From Candidatus Competibacteraceae bacterium (lineage in GTDB: Bacteria > Pseudomonadota > Gammaproteobacteria > Competibacterales > JAHEDQ01), in contig JAHEDQ010000003.1 in the NCBI GenBank assembly GCA_024641125.1, positions 1-56,545 of the forward strand: a stretch of 56,545 nucleotides of DNA. Reading direction: 5' to 3'. The position numbers were made by a program, and so were the translations under genes. The notes beneath the pieces are model-generated. The model had not been told where the DNA came from. It was given only the letters and a program-made list of their open reading frames with translations, and searched no databases. Shown in pieces: positions 2,151 through 21,275 of this stretch; position 1 is the stretch's first letter; every line of letters starts with the position of its first letter.

Positions 2151-2170
2151 CGCGCCAGACCGGGCGGCCT

Positions 2171-2389: not shown

Positions 2390-3265
2390 TCAGGAACCTG
2401 CGGCGCCCGCTGCCGGCGGTGGCATCATCGGCCCAGGCCCGTATCCAGGACCCGGACCATAACCAGGCGCCATACCGCGCCCGGGGCCGTAACCGGGACC
2501 CCATTGCGGCCCTGGACCAGGCCCATAGCCATACCCCGGGCCATAGCCGGGACGAGGTCCGGCGGCCGGTCCAGAATAGGGTCCGTAACCGGGTCCGGGC
2601 CCGAGGCCGCCGCCAGCTGGGCCGTAGGCCTGCGTGCGGGCCCGCCGCGCCTCGAAACGCTGTTCCATCTCAGCCCGCCGGGCCTCGAAAAACGCGTCTT
2701 GCTCCTCGGCGTCCATGGCGGCGAATCGAGCCCGTTCGGCCTCGATGTCGGCGCGCATCCTGTCAGCCTCGTCACGCATCTGCTGGTGACGCTCGATCAT
2801 TTCAGCCGTGCGCTGCTCCGCCTGCTCACGCATGGTCTGGTAACGCTGAACCATTTGTTCTTCCATCAGCTTAGCCTGGCGCACCTGCTCTTCCCGGGCC
2901 TGCGCCAACATCTCTTCGTAGGCACCCGGCAGACCTGCACGGCGCTCTTCGGCTTGTTCGAGCATTTGCTGGTGGAACTTGGCCTGTTCAGCAGCCCGCT
3001 GCTCGGTGAGTTCAAGCATCTCCTGGTAGCGCTTGGCGCTGTCCTCGGCAAATCGCTGTTGCATGGCCGCGTGATGCTCTGCCATGTAGGCCTGTCTCTC
3101 TTCCCCACTCAGGGAATGCATCTTGGCCATGTGGGCGGTCCGTTCCGCCTGCGTCATCATAGCGCCGGCTTGGCCGTGGCCGGCTTGCGTTTCTGCGACG
3201 ACGGATTGCCCCGCCATCAGGAAAGCCGCAGTCGCAGCGGCGATTAGTGGTTTTTTGAACATCAC
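2390..3265 (-). CDS. secreted coiled-coil protein with a C-terminal Gly-Pro-Tyr low-complexity tail
   Basis: 291-aa ORF. Signal peptide MMFKKPLIAAATAAFLMAGQSVVA. About 190 aa of E/Q/R/A/M-rich heptad-like sequence, then a PGYGPGYGYGPGPGPQWGPGYGPGRGMAPGYGPGPGYGPGP tail. The opposite-strand ORFs are low-complexity mirror artefacts. Confidence 0.7.
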   Translation of the reverse strand: MMFKKPLIAAATAAFLMAGQSVVAETQAGHGQAGAMMTQAERTAHMAKMHSLSGEERQAYMAEHHAAMQQRFAEDSAKRYQEMLELTEQRAAEQAKFHQQMLEQAEERRAGLPGAYEEMLAQAREEQVRQAKLMEEQMVQRYQTMREQAEQRTAEMIERHQQMRDEADRMRADIEAERARFAAMDAEEQDAFFEARRAEMEQRFEARRARTQAYGPAGGGLGPGPGYGPYSGPAAGPRPGYGPGYGYGPGPGPQWGPGYGPGRGMAPGYGPGPGYGPGPMMPPPAAGAAGS

Positions 3266-3300
3266 GTCTCTCCTTTACTCGAAAAACAGCCCGCCCTGAA

Positions 3301-3837
3301 TCACCAGGGCGCCATGTTGTTCATAAAATTCATCGGCCGGGACACGTTGTGCAGATTCCAGCTCATGGTGGCCACATCCTGTCGCATCAAGTGCATGGCT
3401 GCGGTCATGGACTCCATACTGGCGGCCATCCCGAGCATCGTGCCGGACTCCTCGTCGACACCGGCGGCGACCCGATCCATATCCGCCGCCACCCGATTCA
3501 GATCACCCGCCACCGCAGAAAAGTTTGCGGCGATGGACTCCATCCTGCCGGTGCTTTCCGCAATGCTGTCCATGTAGGCGATCTGGATCGAAATCGCGTC
3601 CATCCGATCCGCGATACGCGACACGCTGTCGGTCAGGCTGTAGACCAGATAGAACCCATAGGCGGCGAGCACGATAAAGGCGACCAGAGAAGGATAGACA
3701 ATCAGCTCCCACCGCCGGGCGCTGGCCTCGAAGGTGCGGGAAAACTGGTCCATGCATTCCGCCAGACCCTGCTCCGGACCCGGTTGCGGCAACGCGTGCC
3801 GACCGTCCTTGAACTGTTGTGTGGTTGTGTCCGACAT
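3301..3837 (-). CDS. single-pass membrane protein with Met/Asp-rich repeats (function unknown)
   Basis: 178-aa ORF with GAGGA upstream of the ATG. One TM helix (WELIVYPSLVAFIVLAAYGFYLVYSL). Then repeated ..RMDAISIQIAYMDSIAESTGRMESIAANF..DMDRVAAGV..MESMTAAMHLM.., ending in PMNFMNNMAPW. Confidence 0.6.
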   Translation of the reverse strand: MSDTTTQQFKDGRHALPQPGPEQGLAECMDQFSRTFEASARRWELIVYPSLVAFIVLAAYGFYLVYSLTDSVSRIADRMDAISIQIAYMDSIAESTGRMESIAANFSAVAGDLNRVAADMDRVAAGVDEESGTMLGMAASMESMTAAMHLMRQDVATMSWNLHNVSRPMNFMNNMAPW

Positions 3838-3944
3838 GGGCTGTCCTCATTGTCATCTGTGGCGTCACGCTTCTGGGTTCGTTGGCCTGAGTCCCGGCGT
3901 AAGGTTGCCTTCCGCGGGGAAAGCGCCCACCGGGCCCTGGATGT

Positions 3945-4577
3945 TCACGGACGGGTTGTCCTGATGGTGTTGATTTCCCGGGCCAGGGTCTGGCCCCCCT
4001 GAGGATCCAGTCCGCCCACGATGGCCACCATGTGCATGGCTTGACCAAATCGTCTCAAACGGGCCAGATTCAACGCCGCTTCCCGGTAGACGCCAGCCGC
4101 GTCTCGCCAACGCCCCTGTGCGAAGTAGATGTTGCCGAGTTCTCCGGCGGGGTTGGGATCTCCCGGTCTTTGCTCCATCAGGCGCTGATAGAGAACTTCG
4201 GCCTGGGTGTACTCCTGCCGCCAATAGGCCTGACGGGCCATGGCCAGCCCATCCTCGGACACATTGCGTGCCGGCGCGGGCTCCGGCAATGACGGCAGAC
4301 CCGCACCGTACACGGGTCCATAGGCTTGAGGCTGCGCTTGAAACGATTGCACCGCGGCCGGTTCCGTTCCGGTGGTTTGCATGATTTGCCGCTGGGCCCG
4401 TTCAGCCGCTGCGATTTCCTCCGGGCTGAGTGGGCGATAAACCGGCGATTCATCCGGCGCGGTCGCGGCTTCAGCAAAACACGATGCCGACGCCAACACA
4501 CCGGCAAGCAGACTCACCGCGCAACAGGCAAGGCTCTGCGCCCTGTGGGAACATCCATGCACTGGGCTTTCGCTCAT
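3945..4577 (-). CDS. secreted TPR-repeat protein
   Basis: 210-aa ORF with an N-terminal hydrophobic signal (SLACCAVSLLAGVLASASCFAEA). The C-terminal half is TPR-like (ARQAYWRQEYTQAEVLYQRLMEQRPGDPNPAGELGNIYFAQGRWRDAAGVYREA). Confidence 0.6.
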   Translation of the reverse strand: MSESPVHGCSHRAQSLACCAVSLLAGVLASASCFAEAATAPDESPVYRPLSPEEIAAAERAQRQIMQTTGTEPAAVQSFQAQPQAYGPVYGAGLPSLPEPAPARNVSEDGLAMARQAYWRQEYTQAEVLYQRLMEQRPGDPNPAGELGNIYFAQGRWRDAAGVYREAALNLARLRRFGQAMHMVAIVGGLDPQGGQTLAREINTIRTTRP

Positions 4578-4585
4578 ATCGCGTT

Positions 4586-4754
4586 CTCCCTGGGGCGCCT
4601 CTGGTTTATTCTGGACGAATCAGATTGGAGGGTGAAATGTGCAGCTTCAAGGCGCAGATCGCAGGTCATAGTCGTTCTATTGCCAAGATCTGCAACGATG
4701 AAGCTGTGCATTTGAATCCCAAGGTGCAGGTTCATGAATAGATCAGAGGATCCC
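4586..4754 (-). mobile_element. MITE-like hairpin element, copy B (full length, inverted relative to copy A)
   Basis: Its reverse complement aligns end to end with copy A (GGGATCCTCTGATCTATTCATGAACCTGCACCTTGGGATTCAAATGCACAGCTTCATCGTTGCAGATCTTGGCAATAG...CACCCTCCAATCTGATTCGTCCAGAATAAACCAGAGGCGCCCCAGGG). One end overlaps the ParA stop codon (4754-4756). The other end lies 9 nt from the TPR gene ATG. Confidence 0.8.
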
Positions 4755-5404
4755 TAAATCGGGGCCAGTCCGGGATACAGATCCCGGGCGAGCGTATCGA
4801 ATTCCACCGCCGCTTTACTGCGCCGCGCCATTTCATACACCGCCAGACCCTCGCTGAGCGATCTGCGATAAACCGTCCGGTTGCAGAGCCGATGGGGCAG
4901 CAGATGGACCCCGCCCATCATGCCCAAGGCTTCCACTGTCTCATCGGATTCGCGAATCTGGCGATGGGTATCCGCTCGATTGACGAAAGCAAGCACTTCG
5001 ATCCGACGCCCGTCCGGCACCGCCTTGCGCACAATGCTGAGGAACCGCTGGGTCGCCCACACATCCGCCTGGCTCGGCGGAACCGGGATCACCACGCGAT
5101 CGGCAACCTCGATGGCCGACTGCATGGCCGCGATGTTTGCCGCCCCTACATCCACCAGAACCTCGCCGGCGAAGGCCTGGAGCTGTTTTCCGTTGACCTT
5201 GTGCAGTTGATGCACGGTCAGAGCAGGCTCGTGGCCATCCTCGCACCGTACCTGGTTGACATCGGTCAAAGTGCACTGGGGATCCAAGTCATAGGCGACC
5301 ACCGCTTCGGAATGCTGCGCCAGCCATACGCCAAGATTGAAAGCCAGCGTGCTCTTTCCAGACCCGCCCTTAAGATTGCCGATCACCGTGATCACGCCTT
5401 TCAA
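4754..5404 (-). CDS. orphan ParA/MinD-family P-loop ATPase
   Basis: 216-aa ORF. It has the deviant Walker A VIGNLKGGSGKST and overall ParA-like architecture. No parB or parS is recognisable nearby. Confidence 0.85.
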   Translation of the reverse strand: MKGVITVIGNLKGGSGKSTLAFNLGVWLAQHSEAVVAYDLDPQCTLTDVNQVRCEDGHEPALTVHQLHKVNGKQLQAFAGEVLVDVGAANIAAMQSAIEVADRVVIPVPPSQADVWATQRFLSIVRKAVPDGRRIEVLAFVNRADTHRQIRESDETVEALGMMGGVHLLPHRLCNRTVYRRSLSEGLAVYEMARRSKAAVEFDTLARDLYPGLAPI

Positions 5405-5449
5405 CCCTCCAGCATCATGGTTTGCCGACCCATGGCATGTTTGCGCCCG

Positions 5450-6244
5450 TTATTGAATCCGAAGCGCTGCCGGCGGCGCCGGGTTGGCCAACCGGGTGTA
5501 GTCGGATGGCACTTCAAAAAGCGTGTCCGGTTGAGGGCCGAGCTGAATGTTTCGCAGTTCTCGAACCATGCCGCCGGGCAAGGCCTCACGAATCGCAATC
5601 TGAAGCTCGGGATCGAACCATTGCCAGGCCTCCGTGGCCTGACCGTCGGGTCGACTGACCCGCGTCAGCCATTTCTCCACCGGACGATTGTCCAGGGTTT
5701 CCAGACCAACCAGACTCAGCTCAGTGACTGTGCCATCCGGTGCAAACACCTTCAGCGGGAGGCTCCGCTCCCGGTCCAGCCAGTACAGCATCCGATACTC
5801 GCGGCCGTCTCGAGCGACAACCATCTCCCATTTATCCGCGTCACGGCCATTGACGGTTTCGCTCCCCAGTGATTTGCAAACCGCGTCGGGCAGAGTGCCA
5901 CAGGGCCCATTTTCGGGATCCTGAGCACTCGCCTGATCCGGCAAGGGCGGCGGCGCTGGACGTACCAGGTACTGTTTCTGCTGGGGCAGGAGCATCACGA
6001 ACAGCCCCTGTTTGGGGACCGAAATCTCCACGGCGGGCTGACCATTGGCCTCGAACTCCAGCCGCGTGCGGCCATCCCCCACGAACATCCGACTGACTCT
6101 GGGTGGGGATGCCGGGTGCATCTGATAGGCATCGGCGGAGAACTCAATCCGGGTTTGATCCGCAGCAACGACAGTCCCGCTCGCCGTCATTAGCAGCAGT
6201 CCGATCAAAAACGCAATGTTGCCAGCAGCGCGCGGTGTGTTCAT
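5450..6244 (-). CDS. periplasmic LolA-fold / DUF4412-like protein
   Basis: The track ORF runs 5450-6397. I chose the internal ATG at 6244 (GAGAGG upstream) because it gives the signal peptide MNTPRAAGNIAFLIGLLLMTASGTVVA. The body has the pattern typical of LolA-like lipoprotein-sorting folds (..GETVNGRDADKWEMVV...LFEVPSDYTRL). Confidence 0.5.
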   Translation of the reverse strand: MNTPRAAGNIAFLIGLLLMTASGTVVAADQTRIEFSADAYQMHPASPPRVSRMFVGDGRTRLEFEANGQPAVEISVPKQGLFVMLLPQQKQYLVRPAPPPLPDQASAQDPENGPCGTLPDAVCKSLGSETVNGRDADKWEMVVARDGREYRMLYWLDRERSLPLKVFAPDGTVTELSLVGLETLDNRPVEKWLTRVSRPDGQATEAWQWFDPELQIAIREALPGGMVRELRNIQLGPQPDTLFEVPSDYTRLANPAPPAALRIQ

Positions 6245-6365
6245 TTCGCCTCTCTGGGTGGTGCCAGCCCGGTTGGGTACGGTGGGTAACGGTGCTATGG
6301 CGACCTGTCCCACGTTTCGCCCGAAAGTACGTCCAAGCGGGACGCCCGTTGCCGGGCAAGGCCCG

Positions 6366-6397
6366 ATGTATTCGACACAGGGTCGTGTCGAATACAT
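6366..6397 (-). terminator. perfect 13-bp stem hairpin 18 nt downstream of the Gly/Tyr-rich gene; no U-tract (attenuator or mRNA stabiliser candidate)
   Basis: ATGTATTCGACAC-agggtc-GTGTCGAATACAT, read directly from the sequence. Confidence 0.45.
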
Positions 6398-6414
6398 GGG
6401 CTGCTCGATGCCGC

Positions 6415-6867
6415 TTACTGGGCGGGCTGTGCCTGAGGCTGCGGCTGTTGCGGCGCGGGCGCACCGTATCCAGGCGGTGCATAACCCGGGGCCGGAGCGC
6501 CGTAGCCATAGCCGGGTGCACCATAACCGGGTGCACCATAACCATAGCCCGGGTAACCGTAACCAGGCGCACCATAGCCGTAGCCCGGATAGCCGTAGCC
6601 GGGGTAGCCGTAGCCGTAGCCCGGCTGGCCATAACCCCGACCGTAGCCGCTGCCGGTTCCGTGGCCGCTGAAGCCCATGTTGAAGCTGCCGTCGCCCATC
6701 ATGTCGCCCAGGCCGTTACCCCAGCCCGGACCACCCCAACCGGGTCCACCCCAGCCAGGACCGCCCCAGCCCGGACCGCCCCACTGAGCCTGGGCGGAGG
6801 ACAAGGGCAGGGCCATGGCGCCGGCAATCGCGGCGGCAAGAATCGCTTTCTTGAAATTGCTCATCAC
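6415..6867 (-). CDS. secreted Gly/Tyr/Pro repeat protein resembling sulfur-globule envelope proteins (Sgp-like)
   Basis: 150-aa ORF. Signal peptide [27 protein letters not shown], then (WGGPG)x4, then [27 protein letters not shown], then about 12 (P)GYGY(G/A)(A)P units. The composition and the GDG..FNM..SG.G.GSG.GRGYG block match my recollection of purple-sulfur-bacterial SgpA/SgpB. Confidence 0.7.
6721..6783 (-). repeat. four tandem 15-nt coding repeats (WGGPG) that differ only at synonymous positions
   Basis: The minus strand reads TGGGGCGGTCCGGGC TGGGGCGGTCCTGGC TGGGGTGGACCCGGT TGGGGTGGTCCGGGC TGG. All four units encode WGGPG. Confidence 0.9.
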
Positions 6868-7004
6868 TGTTTACCTCAGGTGAAGTACATCTATCGGACG
6901 TCAACACGACGGCGTCCGGTTATCTCCCTGTCTGGTGAAACCATGGTGAACGCAGGGAGTCCCGTTCAGCCTCGCTTCGTCTTCCCTCAAAACACGCCGC
7001 GGCT

Positions 7005-7574
7005 TTACCAGGCCGGGCGGATCTGAGGCCGCCAGTAGGGCGGCCGCATGGGCGCCACCCCGGGTGGCGCGCCCAATCCGTATGTCCCGTACCCTGGCCA
7101 AACAGGCGGATACGGCGACGGGTACTCTGCTCTTGGATAAATCGGCGTCCGGCTGTAGTTGCGCGGTACGGATGGATAGCCCGGCGTCGCAGGAACCCAG
7201 GATCCGGCACGCTGGCGGGACTGGAAGCGCATGCCGGCTGACCCGTGGACAGATGCGCCGACGCCGCCGGACAGGATCCCCGGCCCGGCAAACGTGTTGG
7301 GGCCGGAATACGGCGCCATACCCGGGTCGCTGTCCGTCGCCATTGCCCCGGTGAGTGCGTCCGGTATGGGTGTATAGGGCCCGGGCGGCGCGGACGGCAA
7401 AACGGACCAACCCGGAACGGTAGCGGTGACCGGAGGGCCCGCCACCTGCGCAGGATCGTCCGGCTGTGCCGCATCGACCTGTAGAATCAGCCCCGCCTGC
7501 AACAGGGCAAGTGCACAGACACAGGCAGCAAGTGCCCCACCGGTTGGGATTTGCTTTGCGGGAAAGCGCGTCAT
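7005..7574 (-). CDS. secreted or membrane-anchored Pro/Gly/Tyr-rich low-complexity protein
   Basis: The track ORF runs 7005-7601. The ATG at 7574 has GGAGG 9 nt upstream. N-terminal hydrophobic segment GGALAACVCALALLQAGLILQV. The remainder is P/G/Y/S-rich (..PGYPSVPRNYSRTPIYPRAEYPSPYPPVWPGYGTYGLGAPPG..PPYWRPQIRPAW). Confidence 0.6.
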   Translation of the reverse strand: MTRFPAKQIPTGGALAACVCALALLQAGLILQVDAAQPDDPAQVAGPPVTATVPGWSVLPSAPPGPYTPIPDALTGAMATDSDPGMAPYSGPNTFAGPGILSGGVGASVHGSAGMRFQSRQRAGSWVPATPGYPSVPRNYSRTPIYPRAEYPSPYPPVWPGYGTYGLGAPPGVAPMRPPYWRPQIRPAW

Positions 7575-7611
7575 GGTGCGCTGCCCTCCATCTCGAGCCA
7601 TGACCAGATTC

Positions 7612-10600
7612 TCATTCGAGGTCCTTTTTCAATCGAATCCCGCGGCGCCCACGGGGTGCGGTGACGCCTGGCCTTTCCGCCTGCCGCTCGGGCCCCTTGG
7701 CCTCATCGACAGCGGCCTTACGGATGGTTTTGGCTTTCCGGGGCTTGGCTTGGGATGGGTTTGCCGGGGTGCTGTCTTTGCCCCGTGTCCCGCGCCCCCG
7801 GGCCGTCGTTTTTACCTCGACCCTGGCTGTGTTGTCAGCGGGCGCTGCGGCGGGTTCCTGGGCTGAATCGGAATCTTCTCTGAGCGCCGACTTGCCGCCC
7901 CCGGTGGATGTGCGCGAGCGACTGGGCCGTTTGCGCGCCGGGCCACGCCGCTTGGCTTCGGCCGTCCCGCCCGATGGAGCGGAAGCTTCGGGGCGGGAAG
8001 TGCGCGCGGCTTCCGAACCGGTCGAGGCCGACGACGCATCGGTCCCGACGGGCGCTTGATCAGTGAACGACGGGGGCTGCCAGCCAGGCACTGCCGCCGC
8101 CGAACCGGCCGCCTGCGGGACGACCGCCCCAGGTGCATTGGACCCAGCTGGCGTCATCGTGGAATCCGAACCGCCGAACCGGCCGTACAGAGACCGCACT
8201 GCGCTGAACAACAGGATGAACACGGCGCGGACAAGATAAAACGCCATGCTCAAGACCGCGAGCGCTCTGGACCAGATGCTCAACCACAGAGGCTCGCGCG
8301 GGCCTGTGGGCTGAACCGCTTCCGGGGCAACGCCGCTTACATCCAGGGCGCCGCCATCCGGTGCGCCCCCGGGCATGAACTGCTTGGCGGCGGTGATGCA
8401 GCCCAGAGGAATCACCACCAGGGTCAGGATGGTGGCCACGCCGGTACCGAACAACAGTGAAACTGCCATGCCTTGGAAAATCGGGTCGGTGATGATGGCG
8501 GCCGAACCCGCCATCAGGGTCAGGGCGGTGATCAGAATCGGCCTCATGCGGGTGCGTCCGGCCGCAACCACCGCCTCGCGGATTTCAGCGCCATTGGCCA
8601 CCTCGATGCGGACAAACTCCACCAGAAGAATGGAATTGCGGACGATGATCCCTGCCAGCGCGATAAACCCGATCATGGAGGTGGCGGTGAATTCCGCACC
8701 GGTGACCCAGTGGCCGGGGACGATGCCGATCAGCGTCAGCGGGATCGGCGCCATAATCAGCAGGGCGACGTTGAAGTTGCGCGACTCCCAGACGATGAGG
8801 GCGTAAATCAGCAACAGCGCCGCCATGAACGCCAGGCCCATGTCGCGGAAAGTTTCGTAGGTGACGGTCCATTCGCCGGCCCACTCGAAACCACTCTCGA
8901 AGGTATTCGCCGGCGGGCCGATCAATCCCCAGGGCATGCCTGAGATGGTGTTTCCATCGGGTGTGGTGTAGTCGAGCAACTGATCCTCGACTGCGAACAT
9001 GCCGTAGATGGGCGCACCGAGGCGGCCCTCCATCTCGCCGGTCACATACTCCACCGGCCGCAAATCCTTGTGATAGATGATTGGATCGTCCGTCACGGCT
9101 ACGAAACGGCCTAGCTCGGACAGGGGCACAAAGCTGCCGTCATTCCCCCGGATCGGCAGATTGGACAAGCGGCCGAGTTGCGAGCGCACCGCCAGCGGCG
9201 TTTGGATCACGATGTAGGTCGGCTCCAGCGGTGCTGCCCGCTTTACATCGCCCAAAGTGTGACCGCCCATGGCCATGGCTATGCTGCGGTTGATGGCCTC
9301 CACCGAGATTCCCCGGCGCACCGCCTTCTCGCGATCCACTTCGAAACGCCAGTACTGTTGCGGATCGGCCATCAGCGTGTCCACGTCCACCAGGCCCTGG
9401 GCGCGGTCGAACATCCCACTCATGTCGGCCGCCACCCGGCGCCGGGTGGCGGCGTCAGGTCCATAGACCTCCGCTACGACGGTTTGCAGCACCGGCGGAC
9501 CCGGTGGCATTTCCACCACCTGGATCCGTGCCCCCAGATCCCGGGCAACGGGTGTCAGCAGGGCACGCGCAGCCACCGCAATCTGATGGCTGCTGCGCTC
9601 GCGTTCCGCCTTGTCCACCAACATCACCTGTATGTCCGCTTCCCAAGGGGCTGCACGCAGATAGGTATGCCGCACCAGACCGTTGAAGTTGAACGGCGAG
9701 GCAGTCCCCACATAGGTCTGCAGGGCGGTGACCTCGGGCAGCTTATTGAGTTGTTCGGTCAGGGCACGGGTCACGTTGGCGGTGACCGGCAGGGCAGTCC
9801 CCTCGGGCATGTTCACCACGACGTTGAATTCAGGTTTGTTGTCGAAGGGCAGCATCTTTACCGCCACCGACTGGGTGTAGAACAGCGCGCAGGCTGCGAA
9901 GGTCAGACCGATCAACACAACCAGAAAAATCCTTCGGAGCGTACGGTTTCGGATCAGCGGCCAGATGATCGGCTCATAGATGCGGACGATCAGCTGCCGG
10001 GAGCGCGCCTCACGGCGCTCGGCCTTTTCCAGCGCCGCCAGCTTGGGGCGCAGCTTCCAGGCCACCCACGGCGTGAAGATAAAGGCCGCCAGCAAAGAGA
10101 AAAACATGGCCGAGGAACCCAGCACCGGGATTGGCCGCATATAAGGTCCCATCATGCCGCTGACAAAGCCCATAGGGAGCAAGGCCGAGATGATGGTGAG
10201 GGTCGCCAGAATCGTGGGGTTACCCACCTCCCGCACCGCGTCCACCGCGATGCGGATGGTGGTCTTGCCCGCCAGCAACCAGCGGCGGAATATGTTCTCC
10301 ACCACCACCGTGGCGTCGTCCACCAAGATACCGATGGCGAAGATCAGCGCGAACAGACTGACCCGATCTATGGTGTACCCCATTACCCAGGCCGACCAGA
10401 CGGTGATCAACACCACGATGGGAATCACCGTAATCACCACGAAGGCGGCCCGGGCACCCAGCCCGATAAGACACAGAATGGCTACCGCGACGGCGGCCTC
10501 ACCCAGGGCGGAAAGCAGTTCGTTGACTTTGTCGTTGGCGGTCTGGCCATAGTCCCGGGTGATGGCAAGCTCGACGTTGTCCGGGATGAGTTGTCCGCGC

Positions 10601-11634
10601 AGCTGATCCAGACGGGCGAGAATGGCCCGGGCCACGGTGACGCCATTGGCGCCCTCTTTCTTGGCCAAGGCAATGGTGACGGCCGATGCACCCTCGGCCA
10701 TCAAGGCGTCCGCCGGTGCCGCCGGACCGGTGTAATACCCGACCATGTGCCGGGTTTCCTCGGGGCCGTGGAACACGCTGGCCACATCACGCACATAGAC
10801 CGGCGCACCGGCGCGGGTCCCGACCACCAGCCGGGAGATTTCTTCGGCCGTGCGCAGAAACGAGCCGGTGTACACATTGAAAAGGGTATTGCCCGACTCC
10901 AGGCTTCCGGCCGGTTGCTCCGCGTTGGCCGAGCGAATGGTGTTGGCGATTTCCTCGAGGGTAATGCCATAGCCGCTCAGGCGCTCCGGATACACCTCGA
11001 CACGGATCTGCTCGGCGCGGCCGCCGACCACGTATCCCTGCCCGGTATTCGGCACCTCCTGCAAACGCTGCAGAACGTCCAACGCCAGGGTGCGCATAGC
11101 CCCGTCGTCCACGTCCTGGGACCACATGGTCACGGTCACCACCGGCACGTCGTCGATCCCCTTCGGCTTGACCAGGGGCATAGCGACACCGGGGGGAATC
11201 TTGTCCAGGTTGGACTGAAGCTTGTCATGCACCTTGACTATGGAGGGTCCAAGCTCTTCTCCGACACGAAACCGCACGGTGACCATGGCGCCGCCGCGAC
11301 GGGTGGCGGAATAGACGTGCCGGACACCGGGGATCTCACTCATGATCCGCTCCAGGGACTCGGTCACCAGGCTGGTTACCTGCTCGGCCGACGCACCCGG
11401 GTACTGCACGAACACATCCACCATTGGCACCGATATCTGCGGATCCTCCTGGCGCGGCGTAAATATCAAACCCAGCACACCAACCGCCAGGGCCGCCACC
11501 ATCAGCAGCGGCGACAGCGGTGAGTCGATGAAACTCCGGGCGATCCGCCCGGCCAGGCCGAGATCGACCGCCTCGTCGATGTTCGACGCGTTGGGTTGCA
11601 CCGTCCCGATGTCTTTCTGGTTGTCTTCAGCCAT
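7612..11634 (-). CDS. RND efflux permease (AcrB/AcrD/AcrF superfamily) with about 255 extra C-terminal residues
   Basis: 1340-aa ORF. It has a canonical RND N-terminus (..FIDSPLSPLLMVAALAVGVLGLIFTPRQEDPQISVPMVDVFVQYPGASAEQV..) and a 12-TM body that ends near ..IPLGCITAAKQF (about 8376). After that come an extra hydrophobic helix (about 8196-8289) and a 186-aa basic disordered tail. Confidence 0.9.
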   Translation of the reverse strand: MAEDNQKDIGTVQPNASNIDEAVDLGLAGRIARSFIDSPLSPLLMVAALAVGVLGLIFTPRQEDPQISVPMVDVFVQYPGASAEQVTSLVTESLERIMSEIPGVRHVYSATRRGGAMVTVRFRVGEELGPSIVKVHDKLQSNLDKIPPGVAMPLVKPKGIDDVPVVTVTMWSQDVDDGAMRTLALDVLQRLQEVPNTGQGYVVGGRAEQIRVEVYPERLSGYGITLEEIANTIRSANAEQPAGSLESGNTLFNVYTGSFLRTAEEISRLVVGTRAGAPVYVRDVASVFHGPEETRHMVGYYTGPAAPADALMAEGASAVTIALAKKEGANGVTVARAILARLDQLRGQLIPDNVELAITRDYGQTANDKVNELLSALGEAAVAVAILCLIGLGARAAFVVITVIPIVVLITVWSAWVMGYTIDRVSLFALIFAIGILVDDATVVVENIFRRWLLAGKTTIRIAVDAVREVGNPTILATLTIISALLPMGFVSGMMGPYMRPIPVLGSSAMFFSLLAAFIFTPWVAWKLRPKLAALEKAERREARSRQLIVRIYEPIIWPLIRNRTLRRIFLVVLIGLTFAACALFYTQSVAVKMLPFDNKPEFNVVVNMPEGTALPVTANVTRALTEQLNKLPEVTALQTYVGTASPFNFNGLVRHTYLRAAPWEADIQVMLVDKAERERSSHQIAVAARALLTPVARDLGARIQVVEMPPGPPVLQTVVAEVYGPDAATRRRVAADMSGMFDRAQGLVDVDTLMADPQQYWRFEVDREKAVRRGISVEAINRSIAMAMGGHTLGDVKRAAPLEPTYIVIQTPLAVRSQLGRLSNLPIRGNDGSFVPLSELGRFVAVTDDPIIYHKDLRPVEYVTGEMEGRLGAPIYGMFAVEDQLLDYTTPDGNTISGMPWGLIGPPANTFESGFEWAGEWTVTYETFRDMGLAFMAALLLIYALIVWESRNFNVALLIMAPIPLTLIGIVPGHWVTGAEFTATSMIGFIALAGIIVRNSILLVEFVRIEVANGAEIREAVVAAGRTRMRPILITALTLMAGSAAIITDPIFQGMAVSLLFGTGVATILTLVVIPLGCITAAKQFMPGGAPDGGALDVSGVAPEAVQPTGPREPLWLSIWSRALAVLSMAFYLVRAVFILLFSAVRSLYGRFGGSDSTMTPAGSNAPGAVVPQAAGSAAAVPGWQPPSFTDQAPVGTDASSASTGSEAARTSRPEASAPSGGTAEAKRRGPARKRPSRSRTSTGGGKSALREDSDSAQEPAAAPADNTARVEVKTTARGRGTRGKDSTPANPSQAKPRKAKTIRKAAVDEAKGPERQAERPGVTAPRGRRGIRLKKDLE

Positions 11635-11669
11635 GGTTCAGCACCGCTCGCAGAAGTCCATCGACAGGT

Positions 11670-12908
11670 TCACTGTGGCCGGGTGCCCGGCTCACGCCGG
11701 GACCAGCTCGAACCCATGCCGGGCGGCGGGTTTGCGTAAATGCGCTCACCCACGCGCAGGCCGGACAGCACCGAAACCGTGCCTGTGCTTACGTAGTCGC
11801 CCAGGCGCAAAAGCCGGAGCTGCGTTTCGTTTTTTGCACCGACAACGAACACGCCGGGCAGGCTGCCGCGCCAAACCACCGCACTCTCGGGAATAGCGGG
11901 CAGGGTATTCATCGGGGCATTGATGTCGGGGATCATGACCTCGGCGTACATACCCGGGCCTCCGGGCACACCCTGGGGCAGGTCGAGCTTGACCCGGACC
12001 GTATGTCGCTCCGCATCGGCGGCAGGGAAGATCTGCGCAACCCGGGCATCTACCCGGGTATTGCCCACGTCAAGCCGCGCCGGCACCATCATGCCGACAC
12101 GCAGGCCAGGCATCAGGCGGGCCGGGATCTCCAGGGTGATCTGCAGGTAGCGGGTGTCGGCGAACTCCAGCAGAGGCTGCCCCGGCTGAACCGGATCACC
12201 CACTTCCACCAGTTTGTGCAGAATGACCCCGTCAAAGGGCGCGACAGAACGCGCGTCGCGGACCCGGGCATCCACCTCGCGCAACTGCGATCGGGCTGCT
12301 TCGATGCGGGAGATGGCCTGATCGATCTGGGTACCTCGGTTCACCAGATCCGCCTGACGGTCGAGCCAGGGACTGCCGCCGATGTTGCCCGGCATCATGT
12401 TGGCGAAACCCTGGCTGAACATCTGGTCGAACATGGACGGCAAACCCATGCCTCGGCTGCCGTAGATGCTGCGGCCCTGGGGCGAATACAGTTCCCGGGA
12501 ATACTGCATCTGTGCATTTCCCAGCGCCGCCTCCGCATTGCGTATCTCCGCCAGCGCCGCTTGGCGCCGGGCCAAAAGATCGTCGTCGTCCAGAGTCACC
12601 AGATCGGTCTGGGATTCGAACCAGTCGCCTTCGGCTCCGGCAATAAACACCACCCGTCCGGGCGACTGTGCGGTAAGGGTCACCTCCTTGAAGGGCACCA
12701 CCGTTCCGCCCAGGGTGACCGTGGATCCGCGCCGACTGGCCATGACGGTGACGATGTCGCCGCCGACGGCGGGCTGGGACACGGGGACAACCGGCGCGCC
12801 CGACCGGGCAATTGGCGCATCGCCCTCAACAGCCCGGCCGGCCCACAAGTACCAGCCCACCAGCACCAGTGCTGCAAACGCGGCCATTTTCAAGGGGGCA
12901 TGCTTCAT
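11670..12908 (-). CDS. RND efflux periplasmic adaptor (MFP/HlyD family)
   Basis: The track ORF runs 11670-13136. I chose the internal ATG at 12908 because it gives MKHAPLKMAAFAALVLVGWYLWAG and avoids overlapping the SCP2 gene. It has a coiled-coil hairpin plus barrel-sandwich pattern, and its stop lies 36 nt upstream of the RND start. Confidence 0.8.
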   Translation of the reverse strand: MKHAPLKMAAFAALVLVGWYLWAGRAVEGDAPIARSGAPVVPVSQPAVGGDIVTVMASRRGSTVTLGGTVVPFKEVTLTAQSPGRVVFIAGAEGDWFESQTDLVTLDDDDLLARRQAALAEIRNAEAALGNAQMQYSRELYSPQGRSIYGSRGMGLPSMFDQMFSQGFANMMPGNIGGSPWLDRQADLVNRGTQIDQAISRIEAARSQLREVDARVRDARSVAPFDGVILHKLVEVGDPVQPGQPLLEFADTRYLQITLEIPARLMPGLRVGMMVPARLDVGNTRVDARVAQIFPAADAERHTVRVKLDLPQGVPGGPGMYAEVMIPDINAPMNTLPAIPESAVVWRGSLPGVFVVGAKNETQLRLLRLGDYVSTGTVSVLSGLRVGERIYANPPPGMGSSWSRREPGTRPQ

Positions 12909-13014
12909 GTTGTTTTCCACACGATTGCCTGTCCCAAATGCAACGGCACGGTGCCGGACCGCGCTGTCACGGGCGCGAACGAACTCGCCGTTCTCAGGCC
13001 AATGGGCGTCAAAG

Positions 13015-13410
13015 CTAGACCCGCCCCATGGCGGCGAAACTCTTGATGAACGGACCCGCCATGCGCGGATCCTTGACCATGGCCGAGTAGTCACCCACCT
13101 CGAATTTGAGCTTGCGTGCGGTGTAGGCCATACCAAGACCCATCATCCCGGGCGGCTTTTTCAGCCATTTCTGCCAGTTTTCCGGCGTTGCCCGCAGGTC
13201 CCAGTTTAGGGCCTGGCCGTCGTAGCTGCCCGCCGCGACCGCGCGGCCATTCTCGATCATCAGAACCCCACGGGGCTGAGCTTCACCGTCAAAGCCGTAA
13301 CCGATATTGGAGTTGAACCCGATTTTGGCCAGGGCATCGGCCAACTCGGGGTCGGCATTCCACTGGTCCATCAATCCGGACATCCATTCGGCTGAAAAAA
13401 GATCCGCCAT
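13015..13410 (-). CDS. SCP2 (sterol/lipid carrier) domain protein
   Basis: 131-aa ORF with GAGGAGG upstream. SCP2-type pattern: FSAEWMSGLMDQWNADPELA...VLMIENGRAV...DLRATPENWQKWL...ARKLKFEVGDYSAMVK. No signal peptide. Confidence 0.7.
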   Translation of the reverse strand: MADLFSAEWMSGLMDQWNADPELADALAKIGFNSNIGYGFDGEAQPRGVLMIENGRAVAAGSYDGQALNWDLRATPENWQKWLKKPPGMMGLGMAYTARKLKFEVGDYSAMVKDPRMAGPFIKSFAAMGRV

Positions 13411-13696
13411 GGTCTTGTCGCCTCCTCAAACAACTGAACCAAAACGCGCCGGGACGTCGGTCGCCCAGGTCGTCATTCGCGCAAACGTGGTTGCGGCCAA
13501 TTCCGGACGTCACCAGGGGATTGGAGACAGGGCCGCCGAAACCATGGGGGCAGACATACTGCAGCAACCCGGCCCTGAATCCGCGCTTGGCCTAGAAATC
13601 CTCCTGGTTGATGTGCTCGATACGACACCGCGTCCGAGTCCGGAACCCTCCTGAGTCACCGTTGCGACCCGGGTAGCCCACTTTTTTTATTGTTAT

Positions 13697-13712
13697 TGCA
13701 AGCGCCGGGCCA
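13697..13712 (-). promoter_or_regulatory. candidate sigma54 (-24/-12) promoter directed at the SCP2-MFP-RND string
   Basis: The minus strand reads TGGCCC-GGCGC-TTGCA. The GG and GC dinucleotides have the canonical spacing (consensus TGGCAC-N5-TTGCW). An AT-rich tract sits immediately upstream, and a sigma54 activator gene lies 200 bp away on the other strand. Confidence 0.5.
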
Positions 13713-13840
13713 GCCAATAAACTGCATATTTTTCATATATTTACACGTTTCCGAACTGTTGCACCGAAACGCCGCGCAACCCCTGAAACCGGCAGTTCGT
13801 TTACACAAGGCCGGTGATTTTGTTAGGTTTTCGGCGACAA

Positions 13841-13875
13841 GCAACGGGTGTGCAACAGCTTTGCAACGCTGCAAC
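13841..13875. promoter_or_regulatory. four (T)GCAAC direct repeats spaced 11, 11 and 8 bp; candidate activator-binding (UAS) sites
   Basis: GCAAC at 13841, 13852, 13863 and 13871. There is also a GTTGC-N13-GCAAC palindrome at 13758-13780. Both lie 45-165 bp upstream of the candidate -24 element relative to minus-strand transcription. Confidence 0.3.
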
Positions 13876-13908
13876 GCTTTTGGGCTACTCAAAACCGGCC
13901 GAGGTCCC

Positions 13909-15270
13909 GTGGAAGCAGTTGCCATCGAGAGCGCAGTCGGGGAACTTCGCCCCATCGTTGACGTGCTGGTATCGCAAATAGACGAAGGAGTCATCCTGTC
14001 CGAACTCGGGGGGATGGTTGTCTGCAGCAACCCGGCGGCCAGATCCCTTTTGGGGCTGCCGGCTGGCACCCGCCTGCAGGACCTGCGCGACCTGGGCGGC
14101 CTGAATCTGCAACGCATGATCGACCGCGCCGAACGGGACGCGGCCACCCTAGGGTCGGTCATGTCCGAGGCCGGCTTCGTTGGGTTCGAACGGCCCCTGC
14201 ACATCGATCAGCAGGTGCACAGCCTCGAGTTCCGCAGCGGACAGGTACATCTGCCGGACAAACCCGGCGTGGCCCGCCTGACCATCATCCGTGACGTCAG
14301 TGATCGAAACCGGCTTCGTGCTGTCCTCGACTCCGGGCACCGGGGCACTTTGGTCACTCAGGACAGCCACACGCTGGACATCATCAGCCGTCTGCAACAA
14401 ATTGGCCCCACCCAGGCGACGGTGCTGATTCAGGGCGAATCCGGCACGGGCAAGACCCAGATCGCCCGGCTGCTGCACGAGCACAGCCAGCGTGCCGGGG
14501 GGCCCTTGGTGGAAATCAATTGCGCGGCCATACCCGAGACCCTGATCGAATCCGAATTGTTCGGTCATGTGAAAGGGGCTTTCACCGGCGCCCAGGAAGC
14601 ACGCCAAGGGCGTTTCCAGAGCGCCCACGGCGGCACCCTGCTGCTGGACGAGGTGGGCGAACTGCCGCTGCACCTTCAGGCCAAACTGCTGCGGGTTCTA
14701 CAGGATCACCGATTCGAGAAAGTGGGTTCTGACAAGAGCATCGAAGCCGACGTGCGGGTGATCGCCGCGTCCAATCGCAACCTGCGCCAGGCGTTGGACG
14801 AGGGGGCGTTCCGGGCCGACCTGTACTACCGTCTTGCAGTCATTCCCATCAACGTGCCGCCGCTGCGGGAACGCCCCGGGGATATCCCCTTACTGATTCG
14901 GCACTTCCACGGCCGGCTGGCGGCCAAGGGGTATTCCGACCAGGTACGCTTCGGGCCGGAAGCCATGCAAATGATGATGGACTACCCCTGGCCCGGCAAT
15001 GTCCGGGAACTGTCCAATGCGGTGGAACACGGCATCATCTGTGCGGTGGACGGTTGGGTGCTGCCGAGCAGCCTGCCACAGGACATCCGCAATGCCATGC
15101 CCGGCGCTAAGCTCGAAGCCGCGCATGAGGCGGAACTGGACGATCGTCGAGCCATAGTCGATGCGCTGGACGCCACCGGCGGAAACAGGGCGCAAGCGGC
15201 GAAGCGCCTGGGCATAGATCGCAGCACCTTGTGGCGGCGGATGAACCGGCTGGGTATCGACACAAAGTAG
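13909..15270 (+). CDS. sigma54-dependent transcriptional activator (PAS sensor, AAA+ domain, Fis-type HTH; no receiver domain)
   Basis: The frame is open from 13690 (TTG). I prefer the GTG at 13909, which is 4 nt after GAGG. AAA+ core signatures: VLIQGESGTGKT, GAFTGA, LLLDEVGELPLHLQAKLLRVLQ, RVIAASN, YYRL. C-terminal HTH: GGNRAQAAKRLGIDRSTLWRRM. Confidence 0.85.
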   Translation: MEAVAIESAVGELRPIVDVLVSQIDEGVILSELGGMVVCSNPAARSLLGLPAGTRLQDLRDLGGLNLQRMIDRAERDAATLGSVMSEAGFVGFERPLHIDQQVHSLEFRSGQVHLPDKPGVARLTIIRDVSDRNRLRAVLDSGHRGTLVTQDSHTLDIISRLQQIGPTQATVLIQGESGTGKTQIARLLHEHSQRAGGPLVEINCAAIPETLIESELFGHVKGAFTGAQEARQGRFQSAHGGTLLLDEVGELPLHLQAKLLRVLQDHRFEKVGSDKSIEADVRVIAASNRNLRQALDEGAFRADLYYRLAVIPINVPPLRERPGDIPLLIRHFHGRLAAKGYSDQVRFGPEAMQMMMDYPWPGNVRELSNAVEHGIICAVDGWVLPSSLPQDIRNAMPGAKLEAAHEAELDDRRAIVDALDATGGNRAQAAKRLGIDRSTLWRRMNRLGIDTK

Positions 15271-19066: not shown

Positions 19067-19270
19067 AAATCGTGAACCAGACACCGATGGGTTTGCAGCG
19101 CTTTCGTTACAGCCGCAGATCGAAGGCTGCGGCCCCGACGCCTCTCCGTCAACCCCTGCTGGAGTGGTGTCGCTGGTCTTGTTCCGGGCGCCCGCGTCGC
19201 GACCAAGGCGACCCCCGGCCCACAACTTTAGGAAACTCGGACGCGACCCTGAGAACGGGTCAATGCTTAC

Positions 19271-21256: not shown

Positions 21257-21275
21257 GACCGCGCGGCCAGGGATC

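Follow-up and report, generated by a model that had tools for sequence, protein, structure and literature searches.

A conserved RND pump and ParA gene cluster of sulfur-storing Proteobacteria with a possible role in forming or positioning periplasmic sulfur globules

An RND pump, an SCP2-fold protein, secreted low-complexity proteins, a LolA-like protein and a ParA ATPase are encoded side by side at positions 2390-15270 of contig JAHEDQ010000003.1 (GCA_024641125.1). This raises the question of whether these genes form one system and what such a system would do. The whole stretch of DNA analysed, hereafter the window, comprises 56,545 nt. All ten minus-strand open reading frames and the divergent activator of the original prediction were found where it had placed them, and nearly all of its family assignments held on checking, a PAS sensor being the sole exception. 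The features are the following.

15290..19225, minus strand: PAS-GGDEF-EAL signalling protein (Pfam annotation in locus L002)
13690..15270, plus strand: divergent sigma54-dependent activator (Sigma54_activat 231 bits, AAA_lid_14, HTH_8), true start probably near 13909
13697..13712, minus strand: sigma54 promoter-like element of the -24/-12 type, TGGCCCGGCGCTTGCA, with the SCP2 start 287 nt downstream of it
13015..13410, minus strand: cytoplasmic SCP2-fold protein of 131 aa without signal peptide (AlphaFold model match)
11670..12908, minus strand: membrane-fusion (adaptor) protein, MFP (HlyD_3; RND_mfp 139 bits)
8293..11634, minus strand: RND permease core, aa 1-1114, with 12 TM helices by hydropathy, AcrB/TriC-like (ACR_tran 470 bits)
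8185..8292, minus strand: extra hydrophobic segment after TM12, aa 1115-1150, PLWLSIW...FYLVRAVFILLF (KD19 2.38)
7612..8184, minus strand: disordered A/R/S/G/P-rich tail of the permease, aa 1151-1340, more basic towards its end (composition, charge)
7627..7647, minus strand: C-terminal peptide RRGIRLK of this tail
7005..7601, minus strand: secreted Pro/Gly/Tyr-rich low-complexity protein (open reading frame, signal-like N-terminus), start probably at 7574
6415..6867, minus strand: SGP-family member (PF17228) with signal peptide, (WGGPG)4, (GYGYP)n and a P/Q tail
5450..6244, minus strand: periplasmic LolA-superfamily (DUF4412) protein with two invariant Cys (weak MucB_RseB and DUF4412 matches)
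4754..5404, minus strand: ParF-like ATPase of the ParA/MinD family (KGGSGKST; ParA_partition 130 bits)
4589..4756, unstranded: MITE-like intergenic repeat of ~165 nt between the ParA and TPR genes (repeat comparison)
3945..4577, minus strand: TPR protein (C-terminal domain; TPR_19 and others) that carries a VYRPL motif and is either anchored or secreted
3301..3837, minus strand: Met-rich bitopic membrane protein, a core member (RRWELIVYPSL TM region; C-terminal RPMxFMNxMAPW)
2390..3265, minus strand: secreted coiled-coil, His/Met-rich protein with a PGYG tail (composition, signal peptide)
2166..2334, unstranded: inverted copy of the ~165-nt repeat, bounding the cluster (repeat comparison)

Relatives whose genes run in the same order were detected in at least 403 to at least 589 species genomes by scans anchored on three different genes; the MFP-anchored scan, for which the Met/Phe-rich motif of the adaptor served as pattern, yielded at least 403 species. 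With the gene order shared by hundreds of relatives, chance does not account for this neighbourhood. The RND gene was present in 58/58 MFP-anchored loci of Chromatiaceae and Sedimenticolaceae, ParA in 57 and the Met-rich protein, downstream of the MFP, in 56. ParA-anchored loci had the pump upstream (44 of 47) and the Met-rich gene downstream (54 of 63), and SCP2-anchored loci contained MFP and RND in 38 cases and ParA in 36 out of 46. The invariant core consists of the MFP, the tailed RND permease, secreted low-complexity proteins, the ParF-like ParA and the Met-rich membrane protein, while SCP2, the LolA-like (DUF4412) protein, the TPR protein, a dynamin-like GTPase, the sigma54 activator, GGDEF/EAL proteins and the mtoX neighbourhood are lineage-specific additions. 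A literature search found no paper that describes the cluster or links these genes, in agreement with the original statement that no described system matches. These genes make up a single copy of a real, novel and conserved envelope module of sulfur-storing Proteobacteria.

The permease aligns over aa 43-1077 to TriC (6vej) and MexK, and its TM4 displays the HAE1-type (hydrophobe) signature GILVDDATVVVEN with an Asp pair, not the metal type. No close homologue characterised as a drug or metal pump was found; the RND match reaches 434 bits, whereas the NCBIfam cut-off is 1250. The tail had been described as basic, and its last 210 aa indeed hold 36 K+R versus 19 D+E; among relatives its length ranges from 142 to 355 aa and its net charge varies. 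The end of the tail is constant: of 158 unique tails, which come from all clades, 152 have RRGI[RKQ][LIM]. A 13th helix had also been proposed, and the corresponding hydrophobic segment is present in 139 of the 158 tails. It could be a true helix, in which case the tail would be periplasmic in most species; however, 6-7 tails keep the end motif without this segment, which argues for a cytoplasmic tail. Neither the RRGIRLK end nor the constant pairing of pump, ParA and Met-rich protein had been noted before, although these two features are the most revealing ones. Over its full length, ParA matches ParF (4dzz/5u1g) best among PDB structures, and no ParB/ParG-type partner gene was found, as expected from its earlier designation as an orphan. 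ATPases of the ParA/MinD family are activated by terminal peptides of partner proteins (review PMC11407121), and RRGIRLK is a candidate docking peptide for ParA.

The remainder of the cluster is more variable. The TPR gene was found in 41/63 ParA-anchored loci versus 1/58 of the MFP-anchored ones. In loci L002-L004 it is separated from ParA by 14 nt and the repeat is absent; the window contains five copies of this repeat, which had been called a MITE. Both the Met-rich and the coiled-coil/PGYG protein agree in composition and signal peptides with their first description and belong to no known family. The latter is specific to close relatives of the window (tblastn matches only in loci L002-L004 and L088), and its position is occupied in other clades by the dynamin-like gene. 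As for regulation, an orthologous activator occurs in a subset of relatives only, and the PAS sensor attributed to it was not recovered, as aa 74-230 gave no Pfam match. The predicted -24/-12 element does lie upstream of SCP2, and its position is kept in close relatives, with TGGCCTGTCGTTTGCA in loci L002-L004 (GG/GC kept, spacer varied), but the pattern is not above chance (25 matches versus 33 expected at ≤2 mismatches). A canonical TGGCAC-N5-TTGCT was detected at -60 to -85 in loci L015, L018, L039, L040 and L074, all of which except L018 carry the divergent activator in the tblastn table. Sigma54 control was seen only in activator-carrying loci, apart from the element in L018.

The original prediction had suggested elemental sulfur as the material handled by the cluster. 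Two observations speak for it. The Sgp-like protein matches PF17228 with 35.4 bits (cut-off 26.7), as do 7 of 20 orthologues (best 5.9e-17); homologues are named sulfur globule protein CV1, and the architecture recurs in 43 loci. Moreover, named carriers are almost all sulfur-oxidising lineages, the majority of them known sulfur storers: Chromatiaceae, Sedimenticolaceae and animal symbionts, Thiomargarita and Magnetococcales, including cultured Thiocapsa, Thiocystis, Marichromatium, Chromatium and Allochromatium palmeri/warmingii, as well as Thiodiazotropha and tubeworm symbionts. Common descent, and not function, could underlie this restriction. In Thiomargarita an SGP-like gene lies directly upstream of ParA; in Chromatiaceae canonical sgp genes are located outside the cluster. 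No dsr, sox or sqr gene was found within the window. The abundant proteins of the Riftia symbiont include a probable SCP2 orthologue, the level of which drops together with SgpA/B from small to large cells. The globule proteomes of Brune, from 1995, reportedly list Sgp proteins only. The model organism Allochromatium vinosum forms globules, but it was not among the carriers found by the scans and appears to be without the cluster, which is therefore not essential for globule formation and at most accessory. The function itself, and with it the sulfur link of the pump, ParA and the Met-rich protein, we infer from sequence.

The cluster may serve to form sulfur globules in the periplasm or to position them. 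We tentatively favour a machine anchored in the inner membrane that would load sulfur deposits in the periplasm, coat them and keep them spaced, the tail of the pump being engaged by ParA. From the periplasm or the outer leaflet the pump would take a hydrophobic species, zero-valent sulfur or a lipid-like primer being most likely, and pass it through the adaptor funnel, the tip of which would touch the deposit, not an outer-membrane channel. The Gly/Tyr/Pro-rich proteins, including the SgpA/B-family member, would coat the deposit, and the LolA-like protein would shuttle the ligand of the pump within the periplasm. In this genome the sigma54 activator would switch the cluster on. Globules of Beggiatoaceae lie in membrane-derived vesicles, and the dynamin-like GTPase fits the sulfur reading because membrane remodelling would be needed around globules. 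The hydrophobe-type TM4 signature of the pump, and the failure to find an outer-membrane factor in the Pfam-annotated neighbourhoods, also speak for this reading.

The same GTPase, a neighbour in 143/190 loci (Dynamin_N), also suits a system of envelope lipid trafficking and membrane remodelling, which we consider rather unlikely. Here the cytoplasmic SCP2, the RND pump and the periplasmic LolA-like carrier would move a hopanoid, carotenoid, quinone or lipoprotein-like molecule to the outer membrane or to invaginations, dynamin and ParA would organise the site, and the Gly/Tyr proteins would be structural elements of the envelope. Both predicted folds, which favour such a role, were confirmed. 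The SCP2 protein has no match in Pfam or NCBIfam, yet its AlphaFold model (pLDDT 85) matches T. thermophilus SCP2 (2cx7, TM 0.69, E 2.5e-6) and UbiJ-SCP2. The model of the LolA-like protein (pLDDT 86), homologues of which bear PF14371, matches LolA3, RseB and the LolA superfamily at E 2e-7 with low TM (0.2-0.39), LolA and LprG being among the matches. In mycobacteria RND pumps are paired with LolA-like lipid carriers (MmpL with LprG), a precedent for this arrangement, and Thiogranum possesses the SCP2 gene without the cluster, beside PqiAB/MlaD lipid-transport genes. Against it, the pump is AcrB/TriC-like rather than HpnN/MmpL-like, and a general lipid role leaves the restriction to sulfur oxidisers and the SGP-family member unexplained. 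In addition, both carriers are dispensable in whole clades: the LolA-like gene, like the TPR gene, is absent from entire clades, and SCP2 is encoded upstream in only 24/142 MFP-anchored loci and not beside the pump in Chromatiaceae, although no protein of the cluster is better conserved (2561 homologues, 70-93% identity).

It is less probable that the pump detoxifies, expelling hydrophobic sulfur or organosulfur compounds (polysulfides, dimethyl polysulfides, methanethiol products) or another toxicant through a TolC encoded elsewhere, with ParA merely localising it and the secreted proteins shielding the envelope. The complete AcrB-like core and the Asp pair of TM4 are compatible with this. 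No outer-membrane factor was found in the Pfam-annotated neighbourhoods, but many RND operons lack their own, TolC often being encoded elsewhere in the genome. The proximity of mtoX, pointed out in the original prediction, is real, since mtoX and SCO1/MauG adjoin the cluster in the window and the closest relatives, but it does not extend beyond very close relatives. Furthermore, the hairpin region of the adaptor carries a conserved Met/Phe-rich insertion, GMG(M/L)P(S/N)(M/L)FDQMFT in the alignment, at the would-be TolC contact. We also know of no drug or toxin pump that is inherited together with ParA, low-complexity secreted proteins and a membrane protein rich in Met, as seen here in 57/58 loci.

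It appears improbable that the cluster builds a protein matrix under c-di-GMP control, whether secreted or periplasmic, be it adhesive, capsule-like or a condensate. The Gly/Tyr/Pro/Gln-rich proteins would be the product, and the pump would export a small-molecule cross-linker or act as scaffold. Relatives carry 1-4 Pro/Gly/Tyr-rich open reading frames at the position of 7005..7601 with a common [YF]RP[LVI] motif, which occurs 203 times versus 6 expected in 306 unique signal-bearing low-complexity frames, and GGDEF/EAL proteins frequently adjoin, the PAS-GGDEF-EAL protein being a frequent upstream neighbour with tblastn matches upstream of SCP2 in many loci. However, the sulfur-oxidiser restriction and the SGP-family matches stay unexplained, no exported polymer is proposed, and no glycosyltransferase or polysaccharide-export family was found among the Pfam-annotated neighbours. 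Finally, an ordinary drug or metal efflux operon with unrelated genes adjoining by chance is most improbable. The MFP and RND genes do belong to efflux-pump families, but the conservation data already contradict this reading, as synteny is kept across families and even classes and the tail peptide is invariant; the scores, too, lie far under the curated multidrug and metal-pump cut-offs.

In the preferred sulfur-deposit machine, the terminal Arg-rich peptide of the cytoplasmic RND tail would engage a nucleoid-bound ParA dimer, by which the machines and their attached globules would be spaced along the cell and divided among the daughters. The proposed pair of RND tail and ParA would then resemble the flexible tail of ParG and its ATPase ParF, the likeness being that of a flexible tail which engages an ATPase.

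All open reading frames of the original prediction were found on the minus strand between positions 2390 and 13410, and the activator gene was found on the plus strand. The assignment of the gene at 3945-4577 as a TPR protein was borne out by a Pfam match. The distances between successive genes were as follows.

Intergenic distances in the cluster (all genes on the minus strand)
SCP2 protein (13015-13410) to RND adaptor (MFP): 106 nt
MFP to RND permease: 35 nt
RND permease to secreted Pro/Gly/Tyr-rich protein (7005-7601): 10-37 nt
Pro/Gly/Tyr-rich protein to SGP-like protein (6415-6867): 137 nt
SGP-like protein to LolA-like protein (5450-6244): 170 nt
LolA-like protein to ParA: 45 nt
ParA to TPR protein (3945-4577): 176 nt
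TPR protein to Met-rich protein: 107 nt
Met-rich protein to coiled-coil protein with PGYG tail (2390-3265): 35 nt

The element previously called a MITE copy proved to belong to an intergenic repeat of about 165 nt (MITE- or REP-like), of which five copies lie in the window.

Copies of the repeat of about 165 nt
2166-2334
4589-4756
39044-39127
49224-49379
53871-54042

The copies at 2166-2334 and 4589-4756 are mutually inverted and flank the TPR, Met-rich and coiled-coil genes; in the closest relatives the gap between ParA and TPR is 14 nt and free of the repeat. Weak terminator-like hairpins were detected at 12964-12946 (minus strand), in the gap between SCP2 and MFP, and at 3311-3292 (minus strand), just past the Met-rich gene. 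Both are possible attenuation points within the gene string, and the first would fit a higher expression of SCP2. Scans for Rfam families and tRNAs in the window gave no matches, and no dsr, sox or sqr gene was found anywhere in it. Pfam searches at E ≤ 5 returned only noise for the Met-rich, coiled-coil, Pro/Gly/Tyr-rich and SCP2 proteins. The top matches of the Met-rich protein (DUF948 and YphA at 0.015-0.02) were counted as such, and the 131-aa SCP2 protein matched no family at that threshold, SCP2 included. Elsewhere the window holds a fatty-acid beta-oxidation set at 40056-45831 on the plus strand (FadE-type acyl-CoA dehydrogenase, FadB and thiolase) and a peptide ABC transporter at 24712-27468.

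Conservation of the gene order was analysed by three scans with one genome per species, anchored on SCP2 (at least 589 species), on ParA (at least 534 species) or on the special motif of the MFP (403 species). All fetched loci were scored by tblastn.

Neighbours of each anchor (loci with adequate flanking sequence, mostly MAG contigs carrying NCBI labels; the three anchor sets overlap)
SCP2 anchor, 46 loci: MFP and RND 38, ParA 36
ParA anchor, upstream flank, 47 loci: pump upstream 44
ParA anchor, downstream flank, 63 loci: Met-rich 54, TPR 41
MFP anchor, 58 loci: RND 58, ParA 57, Met-rich 56, LolA-like 35, TPR 1

The neighbourhood is strongly conserved. These counts define an invariant core made of the MFP, the tailed RND permease, the secreted low-complexity proteins, ParA and the Met-rich protein. 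SCP2, the LolA-like protein, the TPR protein, the activator and a GGDEF/EAL protein are lineage-specific members, and SCP2 lies upstream of the MFP in just 24 of 142 MFP-anchored loci. The entire string, together with mtoX, SCO1/MauG, the GGDEF/EAL protein and the activator, was recovered in a metagenomic close relative with 93% SCP2 identity. A dynamin-like GTPase (Dynamin_N, PF00350, 480-508 aa) is a further member in 143 of 190 loci. Chromatiaceae and Sedimenticolaceae have it upstream in divergent orientation, and in the other clade it follows the Met-rich gene on the downstream side.

Dynamin-like genes in three relatives' loci
L208, 7844-9370, minus strand
L007, 8154-9674, minus strand
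L090, at about 12248, plus strand

No copy was found in the window, where the coiled-coil/PGYG gene holds that position. Taken as a whole, the module is very probably real, functionally coupled and undescribed.

The carriers of the cluster were identified in the following taxa.

Taxa carrying the cluster
Chromatiaceae: Thiocapsa roseopersicina, T. imhoffii, T. marina, Thiocystis, Marichromatium, Thiorhodococcus, Chromatium okenii, C. weissei, Thiobaca, Thiococcus, Rhabdochromatium, Lamprocystis, Thiodictyon, Allochromatium palmeri, A. warmingii, Ca. Thiosymbion
Sedimenticolaceae: Sedimenticola, Ca. Thiodiazotropha, symbionts of Escarpia and Lamellibrachia
Other families: Thiohalomonadaceae, Thioalkalispiraceae, Woeseiaceae, Granulosicoccaceae, Competibacteraceae
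More distant: Thiotrichaceae, Thiomargarita, Magnetococcales

In T. roseopersicina and A. palmeri the order was read directly as MFP, RND with the RRGIRLK end, a secreted protein bearing YRFRGDP/YRFRPL motifs, LolA-like, ParA and Met-rich. Two genome searches ranked on A. palmeri proteins yielded A. warmingii at 75-84% but not Allochromatium vinosum. A. vinosum probably lacks the cluster, and this absence from the model organism for globules may be the reason that the cluster has gone unstudied. Literature searches that combined Sgp with RND, ParA, SCP2, sterol or dynamin turned up no account of the cluster.

The interval between the pump and ParA encodes one to four proteins with a signal peptide or lipoprotein signal that are rich in Pro, Gly, Arg, Tyr and Gln. 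A motif, [YF]RP[LVI], occurs in them 203 times against 6 expected, in 102 of 306 unique low-complexity ORFs; its consensus is Y-x-F-R-P-L, also given as G-Y-R-F-R-P-L. The TPR protein of the window carries VYRPL (VYRPLSPEE, 4400-4420). The SGP-like protein at 6415-6867 matched the sulfur globule protein family PF17228 (SGP) with 35.4 bits, above the gathering score of 26.7, and displays a Sec signal peptide followed by QWGG and a (GYGYP)n body. Across 43 loci of the window's clade its architecture is fixed: signal peptide, WGGPWGG repeats, a short segment, (GYGGYP)n and a Pro-rich end. PF17228 was matched by 7 of 20 orthologues (best 5.9e-17), and some homologues bear the name sulfur globule protein CV1. 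Periplasmic sulfur globules are coated by Sgp proteins (PMC10386293).

The RND permease gave an ACR_tran match of 470 bits, and its residues 43-1077 align with TriC (6vej) and MexK; these matches and hydropathy analysis indicated 12 TM helices and two large periplasmic domains. For the proton-relay residues (Asp-Asp in TM4, Lys in TM10), inspection of the translation by eye located TM4 as GILVDDATVVVEN and TM10 as IIVRNSILLVEF, the latter with Arg at the position of the Lys of AcrB. Curated multidrug and metal models scored the permease below their cut-offs (RND_permease_2, the best, 434.6 bits for a cut-off of 1250; CusA/CzcA, 262.9 for 701). The MFP belongs to HlyD_3/RND_mfp, with 139 bits for RND_mfp against a cut-off of 94.9. 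Its hairpin region (aa ~195-250, window 12150-12330) bears the conserved motif GMG(M/L)P(S/N)(M/L)FDQMFT. The C-terminus of the Met-rich protein, RPMxFMNxFMPW, resembles this Met/Phe-rich motif in composition. No outer-membrane factor (TolC/OEP) was found in the window's cluster or in the Pfam-annotated neighbourhoods L002-4, L007, L314 and L315, and a distant genomic partner is possible.

Past TM12 the permease continues with a strongly hydrophobic segment (aa 1115-1150, KD 2.38) and a disordered tail rich in Ala, Arg, Ser, Gly and Pro, the final 210 residues of which count 36 K+R versus 19 D+E. The 158 unique RND tails are 142-355 aa long and vary in net charge between acidic and very basic, and 152 of them end in RRGI[RKQ][LIM], usually as (K/R)RRGIRLK. 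The tail variant RRGIKLK looks specific to one clade. The extra hydrophobic segment is present in 139 of them, and six or seven tails, including those of Magnetococcales, have no segment and keep the end motif. A tail without the segment would have to share the membrane side on which TM12 ends, the cytoplasm. By homology, the tail is predicted to be cytoplasmic in all members, and the extra segment would be re-entrant or interfacial. A role of the TPR domain as reader of the C-terminal peptide was rejected because clusters of Chromatiaceae and Sedimenticolaceae that have no TPR gene still keep the peptide.

The ParA protein displays the deviant Walker A motif LKGGSGKST with its signature Lys, which is invariant across 8 orthologues. 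Its closest full-length solved relative is ParF of TP228 (4dzz, 5u1g; E 1e-15; profile 7-205 versus residues 8-200), and it scored 130.2 bits with the curated ParA_partition model, under the cut-off of 180. No partner of ParB, ParG or McdB type was found among its neighbours, which are the LolA-like, TPR and Met-rich membrane proteins. ATPases of the ParA/MinD family form ATP-bound dimers on nucleoid or membrane and are released by short peptides, which lie in the flexible ends of partner proteins whose genes adjoin those of the cargo (PMC11407121). The same 2024 review of ParA/MinD cargoes mentions neither sulfur nor efflux pumps. In a Thiomargarita sp. MAG (L118, 9058-10253) the SGP-like gene directly precedes the ParA orthologue, and no pump lies within 9 kb. 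In that lineage ParA is tied to a globule-protein gene, not to the pump.

An AlphaFold model of the SCP2 protein (pLDDT 85.3) matched 2cx7 best (TM 0.69, E 2.5e-6), followed by 1wfr and UbiJ-SCP2 6h6o, and the protein is predicted to adopt the alpha/beta SCP2 fold. In Thiogranum and Thiohalobacter SCP2 is the only gene of the cluster. The lone gene of Thiogranum longum (L005/L006) adjoins the lipid-transport genes PqiA/PqiB(MlaD)/ABC_trans_aux. The Thiogranum context suggests a pump-independent role for SCP2. In the examined part of the proteome of the Riftia symbiont (PMC7787665, supplementary file 2), a 137-aa SCP2-domain protein, EGV50595.1, is encoded beside a GGDEF/EAL protein. Its abundance there is about that of ribosomal proteins and falls from small to large symbiont cells, as does that of SgpA/SgpB. 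By size, SCP2 annotation and GGDEF/EAL neighbour it is probably orthologous to the protein encoded at 13015-13410. A search for it by way of cluster members did not find it, and the other members were not found in the same part of the supplement.

The LolA-like protein gave weak matches to MucB_RseB (20.2 bits, cut-off 22.3) and DUF4412 (E 0.027), and its homologues carry PF14371 in precomputed annotation. Its sequence profile matched nothing in the PDB even at E 10. With a model of pLDDT 85.7, the top 50 Foldseek matches were almost all of the LolA superfamily, among them LolA3, RseB, NE2245, LprG and LolA, with E values down to 2e-7 and TM scores of only 0.2-0.39.

The activator is recognised by Sigma54_activat (231.5 bits) and HTH_8 (52 bits). 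The PAS sensor attributed to it could not be confirmed, as residues 74-230 gave no Pfam match at E ≤ 0.1 and none is listed for the orthologue in L002. The predicted -24/-12 element (GG-N10-GC) is present at 13697-13712 with one mismatch; as a bare pattern (≤2 mismatches) it does not exceed chance, and its weight lies in position and conservation, not in pattern statistics. The element stands 287-304 nt upstream of SCP2 in the window and in L002-4, with GG/GC kept and the spacer altered. Five other loci have a canonical sigma54 promoter 60-85 nt ahead of SCP2, and for four of the five the tblastn table shows a divergent activator. Since most loci have neither element nor activator, control by sigma54 is best described as a clade-specific overlay. 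On the minus strand at 19271-22643 the window also encodes mtoX (SBP56), then a fused SCO1/SenC-MauG-cytochrome c gene, an order known from methanethiol oxidase loci. The mtoX locus adjoins the cluster in the closest relatives only, and for this reason methanethiol was rejected as the key to its function.

What the data show is the set of parts, their joint inheritance, the invariant peptide and the range of taxa. A link of the cluster to sulfur storage is plausible, if just short of probable. The specific mechanism that would join ParA, tail and globule is tentative. Rather unlikely as it is in full detail, it would have a ParF-like ATPase on the nucleoid position and partition the periplasmic sulfur globule by gripping the RRGIRLK end of the RND tail, while the periplasmic adaptor, docked to the protein-coated globule, feeds hydrophobic sulfur into it. 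The pump-adaptor pair would be anchored at the globule and load hydrophobic zero-valent sulfur, or a primer, into the deposit. AcrB-like pumps bind substrates of hydrophobic or amphiphilic nature in the outer leaflet or the periplasm and send them outward via the adaptor. The LolA-like protein may ferry the same ligand through the periplasm, and the low-complexity proteins may coat the deposit. With the tail peptide as the putative partner of ParA, machines and globules would be spaced over the nucleoid. In Beggiatoaceae the globules sit within membrane-derived vesicles.

Lipid trafficking and membrane remodelling would be compatible with the SCP2, LolA-like and dynamin-like proteins; this function is considered unlikely and fits neither the taxon range nor the SGP member. 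Detoxifying efflux with a distant TolC is possible and quite improbable, and would leave the invariant partners and the adaptor motif unexplained. A protein matrix controlled by c-di-GMP is very unlikely. Chance juxtaposition is contradicted by the conservation data and hardly credible.

If the specific mechanism with ParA, tail and globule is true, the cluster would be the first biogenesis machinery known for sulfur globules, and the globule the first ParA/MinD cargo outside the cytoplasm. To our knowledge, the only known globule parts are the Sgp coat proteins, from A. vinosum, which seems to be without the cluster. The module would provide gene candidates for the delivery and retrieval of zero-valent sulfur and for the number, placement and inheritance of globules, in hundreds of sulfur-storing species, giant sulfur bacteria and major symbionts of animals among them. 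A membrane pump whose long tether has an invariant Arg-rich end would be a new class of ParA/MinD partner, and such a tether could couple the nucleoid to the periplasm. Cultured carriers (Thiocapsa roseopersicina, Marichromatium gracile, Thiocystis violacea and Allochromatium warmingii) allow direct testing.

Several known systems resemble parts of the cluster. The SGP-like protein shares with SgpA/SgpB (CV1/CV2) of A. vinosum the Sec signal peptide, the Gly/Tyr repeats and the PF17228 match, and differs by having an additional (WGGPG)n block at its N-terminus. Its gene lies within a pump/ParA cluster, whereas the sgp genes of A. vinosum are reportedly separate units. The secreted coiled-coil protein at 2390-3265 is similar, in architecture only, to SgpD of A. 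vinosum, a Sec-exported, possibly coiled-coil globule protein (PMC10386293).

With HAE1-type RND pumps (AcrAB-TolC, TriABC-OpmH, MexJK) the permease has in common its end-to-end alignment with TriC and MexK and the adjacent MFP gene, and, as far as inspection by eye suggests, the Asp-Asp pair in TM4. In contrast to these pumps, the cluster has no outer-membrane factor in the annotated neighbourhoods, its permease has the extra hydrophobic segment and a disordered tail of 150-350 aa ending in RRGIRLK, and its adaptor hairpin bears the conserved Met/Phe-rich motif. Moreover, the pump is co-encoded with ParA (57/58) and the Met-rich membrane protein (56/58 MFP-anchored loci). MmpL/HpnN lipid exporters with periplasmic LprG/LppX carriers combine an RND protein with a co-encoded LolA-superfamily protein, as the cluster may also do, and LprG is among the fold matches of the LolA-like protein. 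LprG/LppX-type proteins of this superfamily have a hydrophobic cavity. The permease of the cluster is, however, AcrB-like and not MmpL/HpnN-like, and the LolA-like gene is absent from Sedimenticolaceae-type clusters.

The ParF-ParG plasmid partition (TP228) and McdA-McdB carboxysome positioning systems likewise rely on a small ParF-like Walker ATPase whose gene lies beside that of the cargo, here a presumed one. The candidate partner presents an Arg-rich peptide on a flexible end, and activation in this family is known to work through such peptides. Unlike them, the cluster has neither a ParG/ParB/McdB-like adaptor nor a centromere, its candidate partner is an integral-membrane pump with a C-terminal instead of an N-terminal peptide, and its presumed cargo is outside the cytoplasm. 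BcsQ of bacterial cellulose secretion, thought to place the cellulose export machine in the cell, is also a ParA/MinD-family ATPase co-encoded with an envelope-spanning machine, and the ParA of the cluster has a partial match to the NCBIfam model cellulose_yhjQ (9e-14). This similarity is confined to the N-terminal P-loop, and BcsR/BcsE and cellulose synthase are absent from the cluster. Each part is of a known family, and the combination is without a described counterpart: an RND system and a ParA/MinD-cargo system occur together in an unfamiliar way, with a substantial chance that they form a new kind of organelle-biogenesis machinery.
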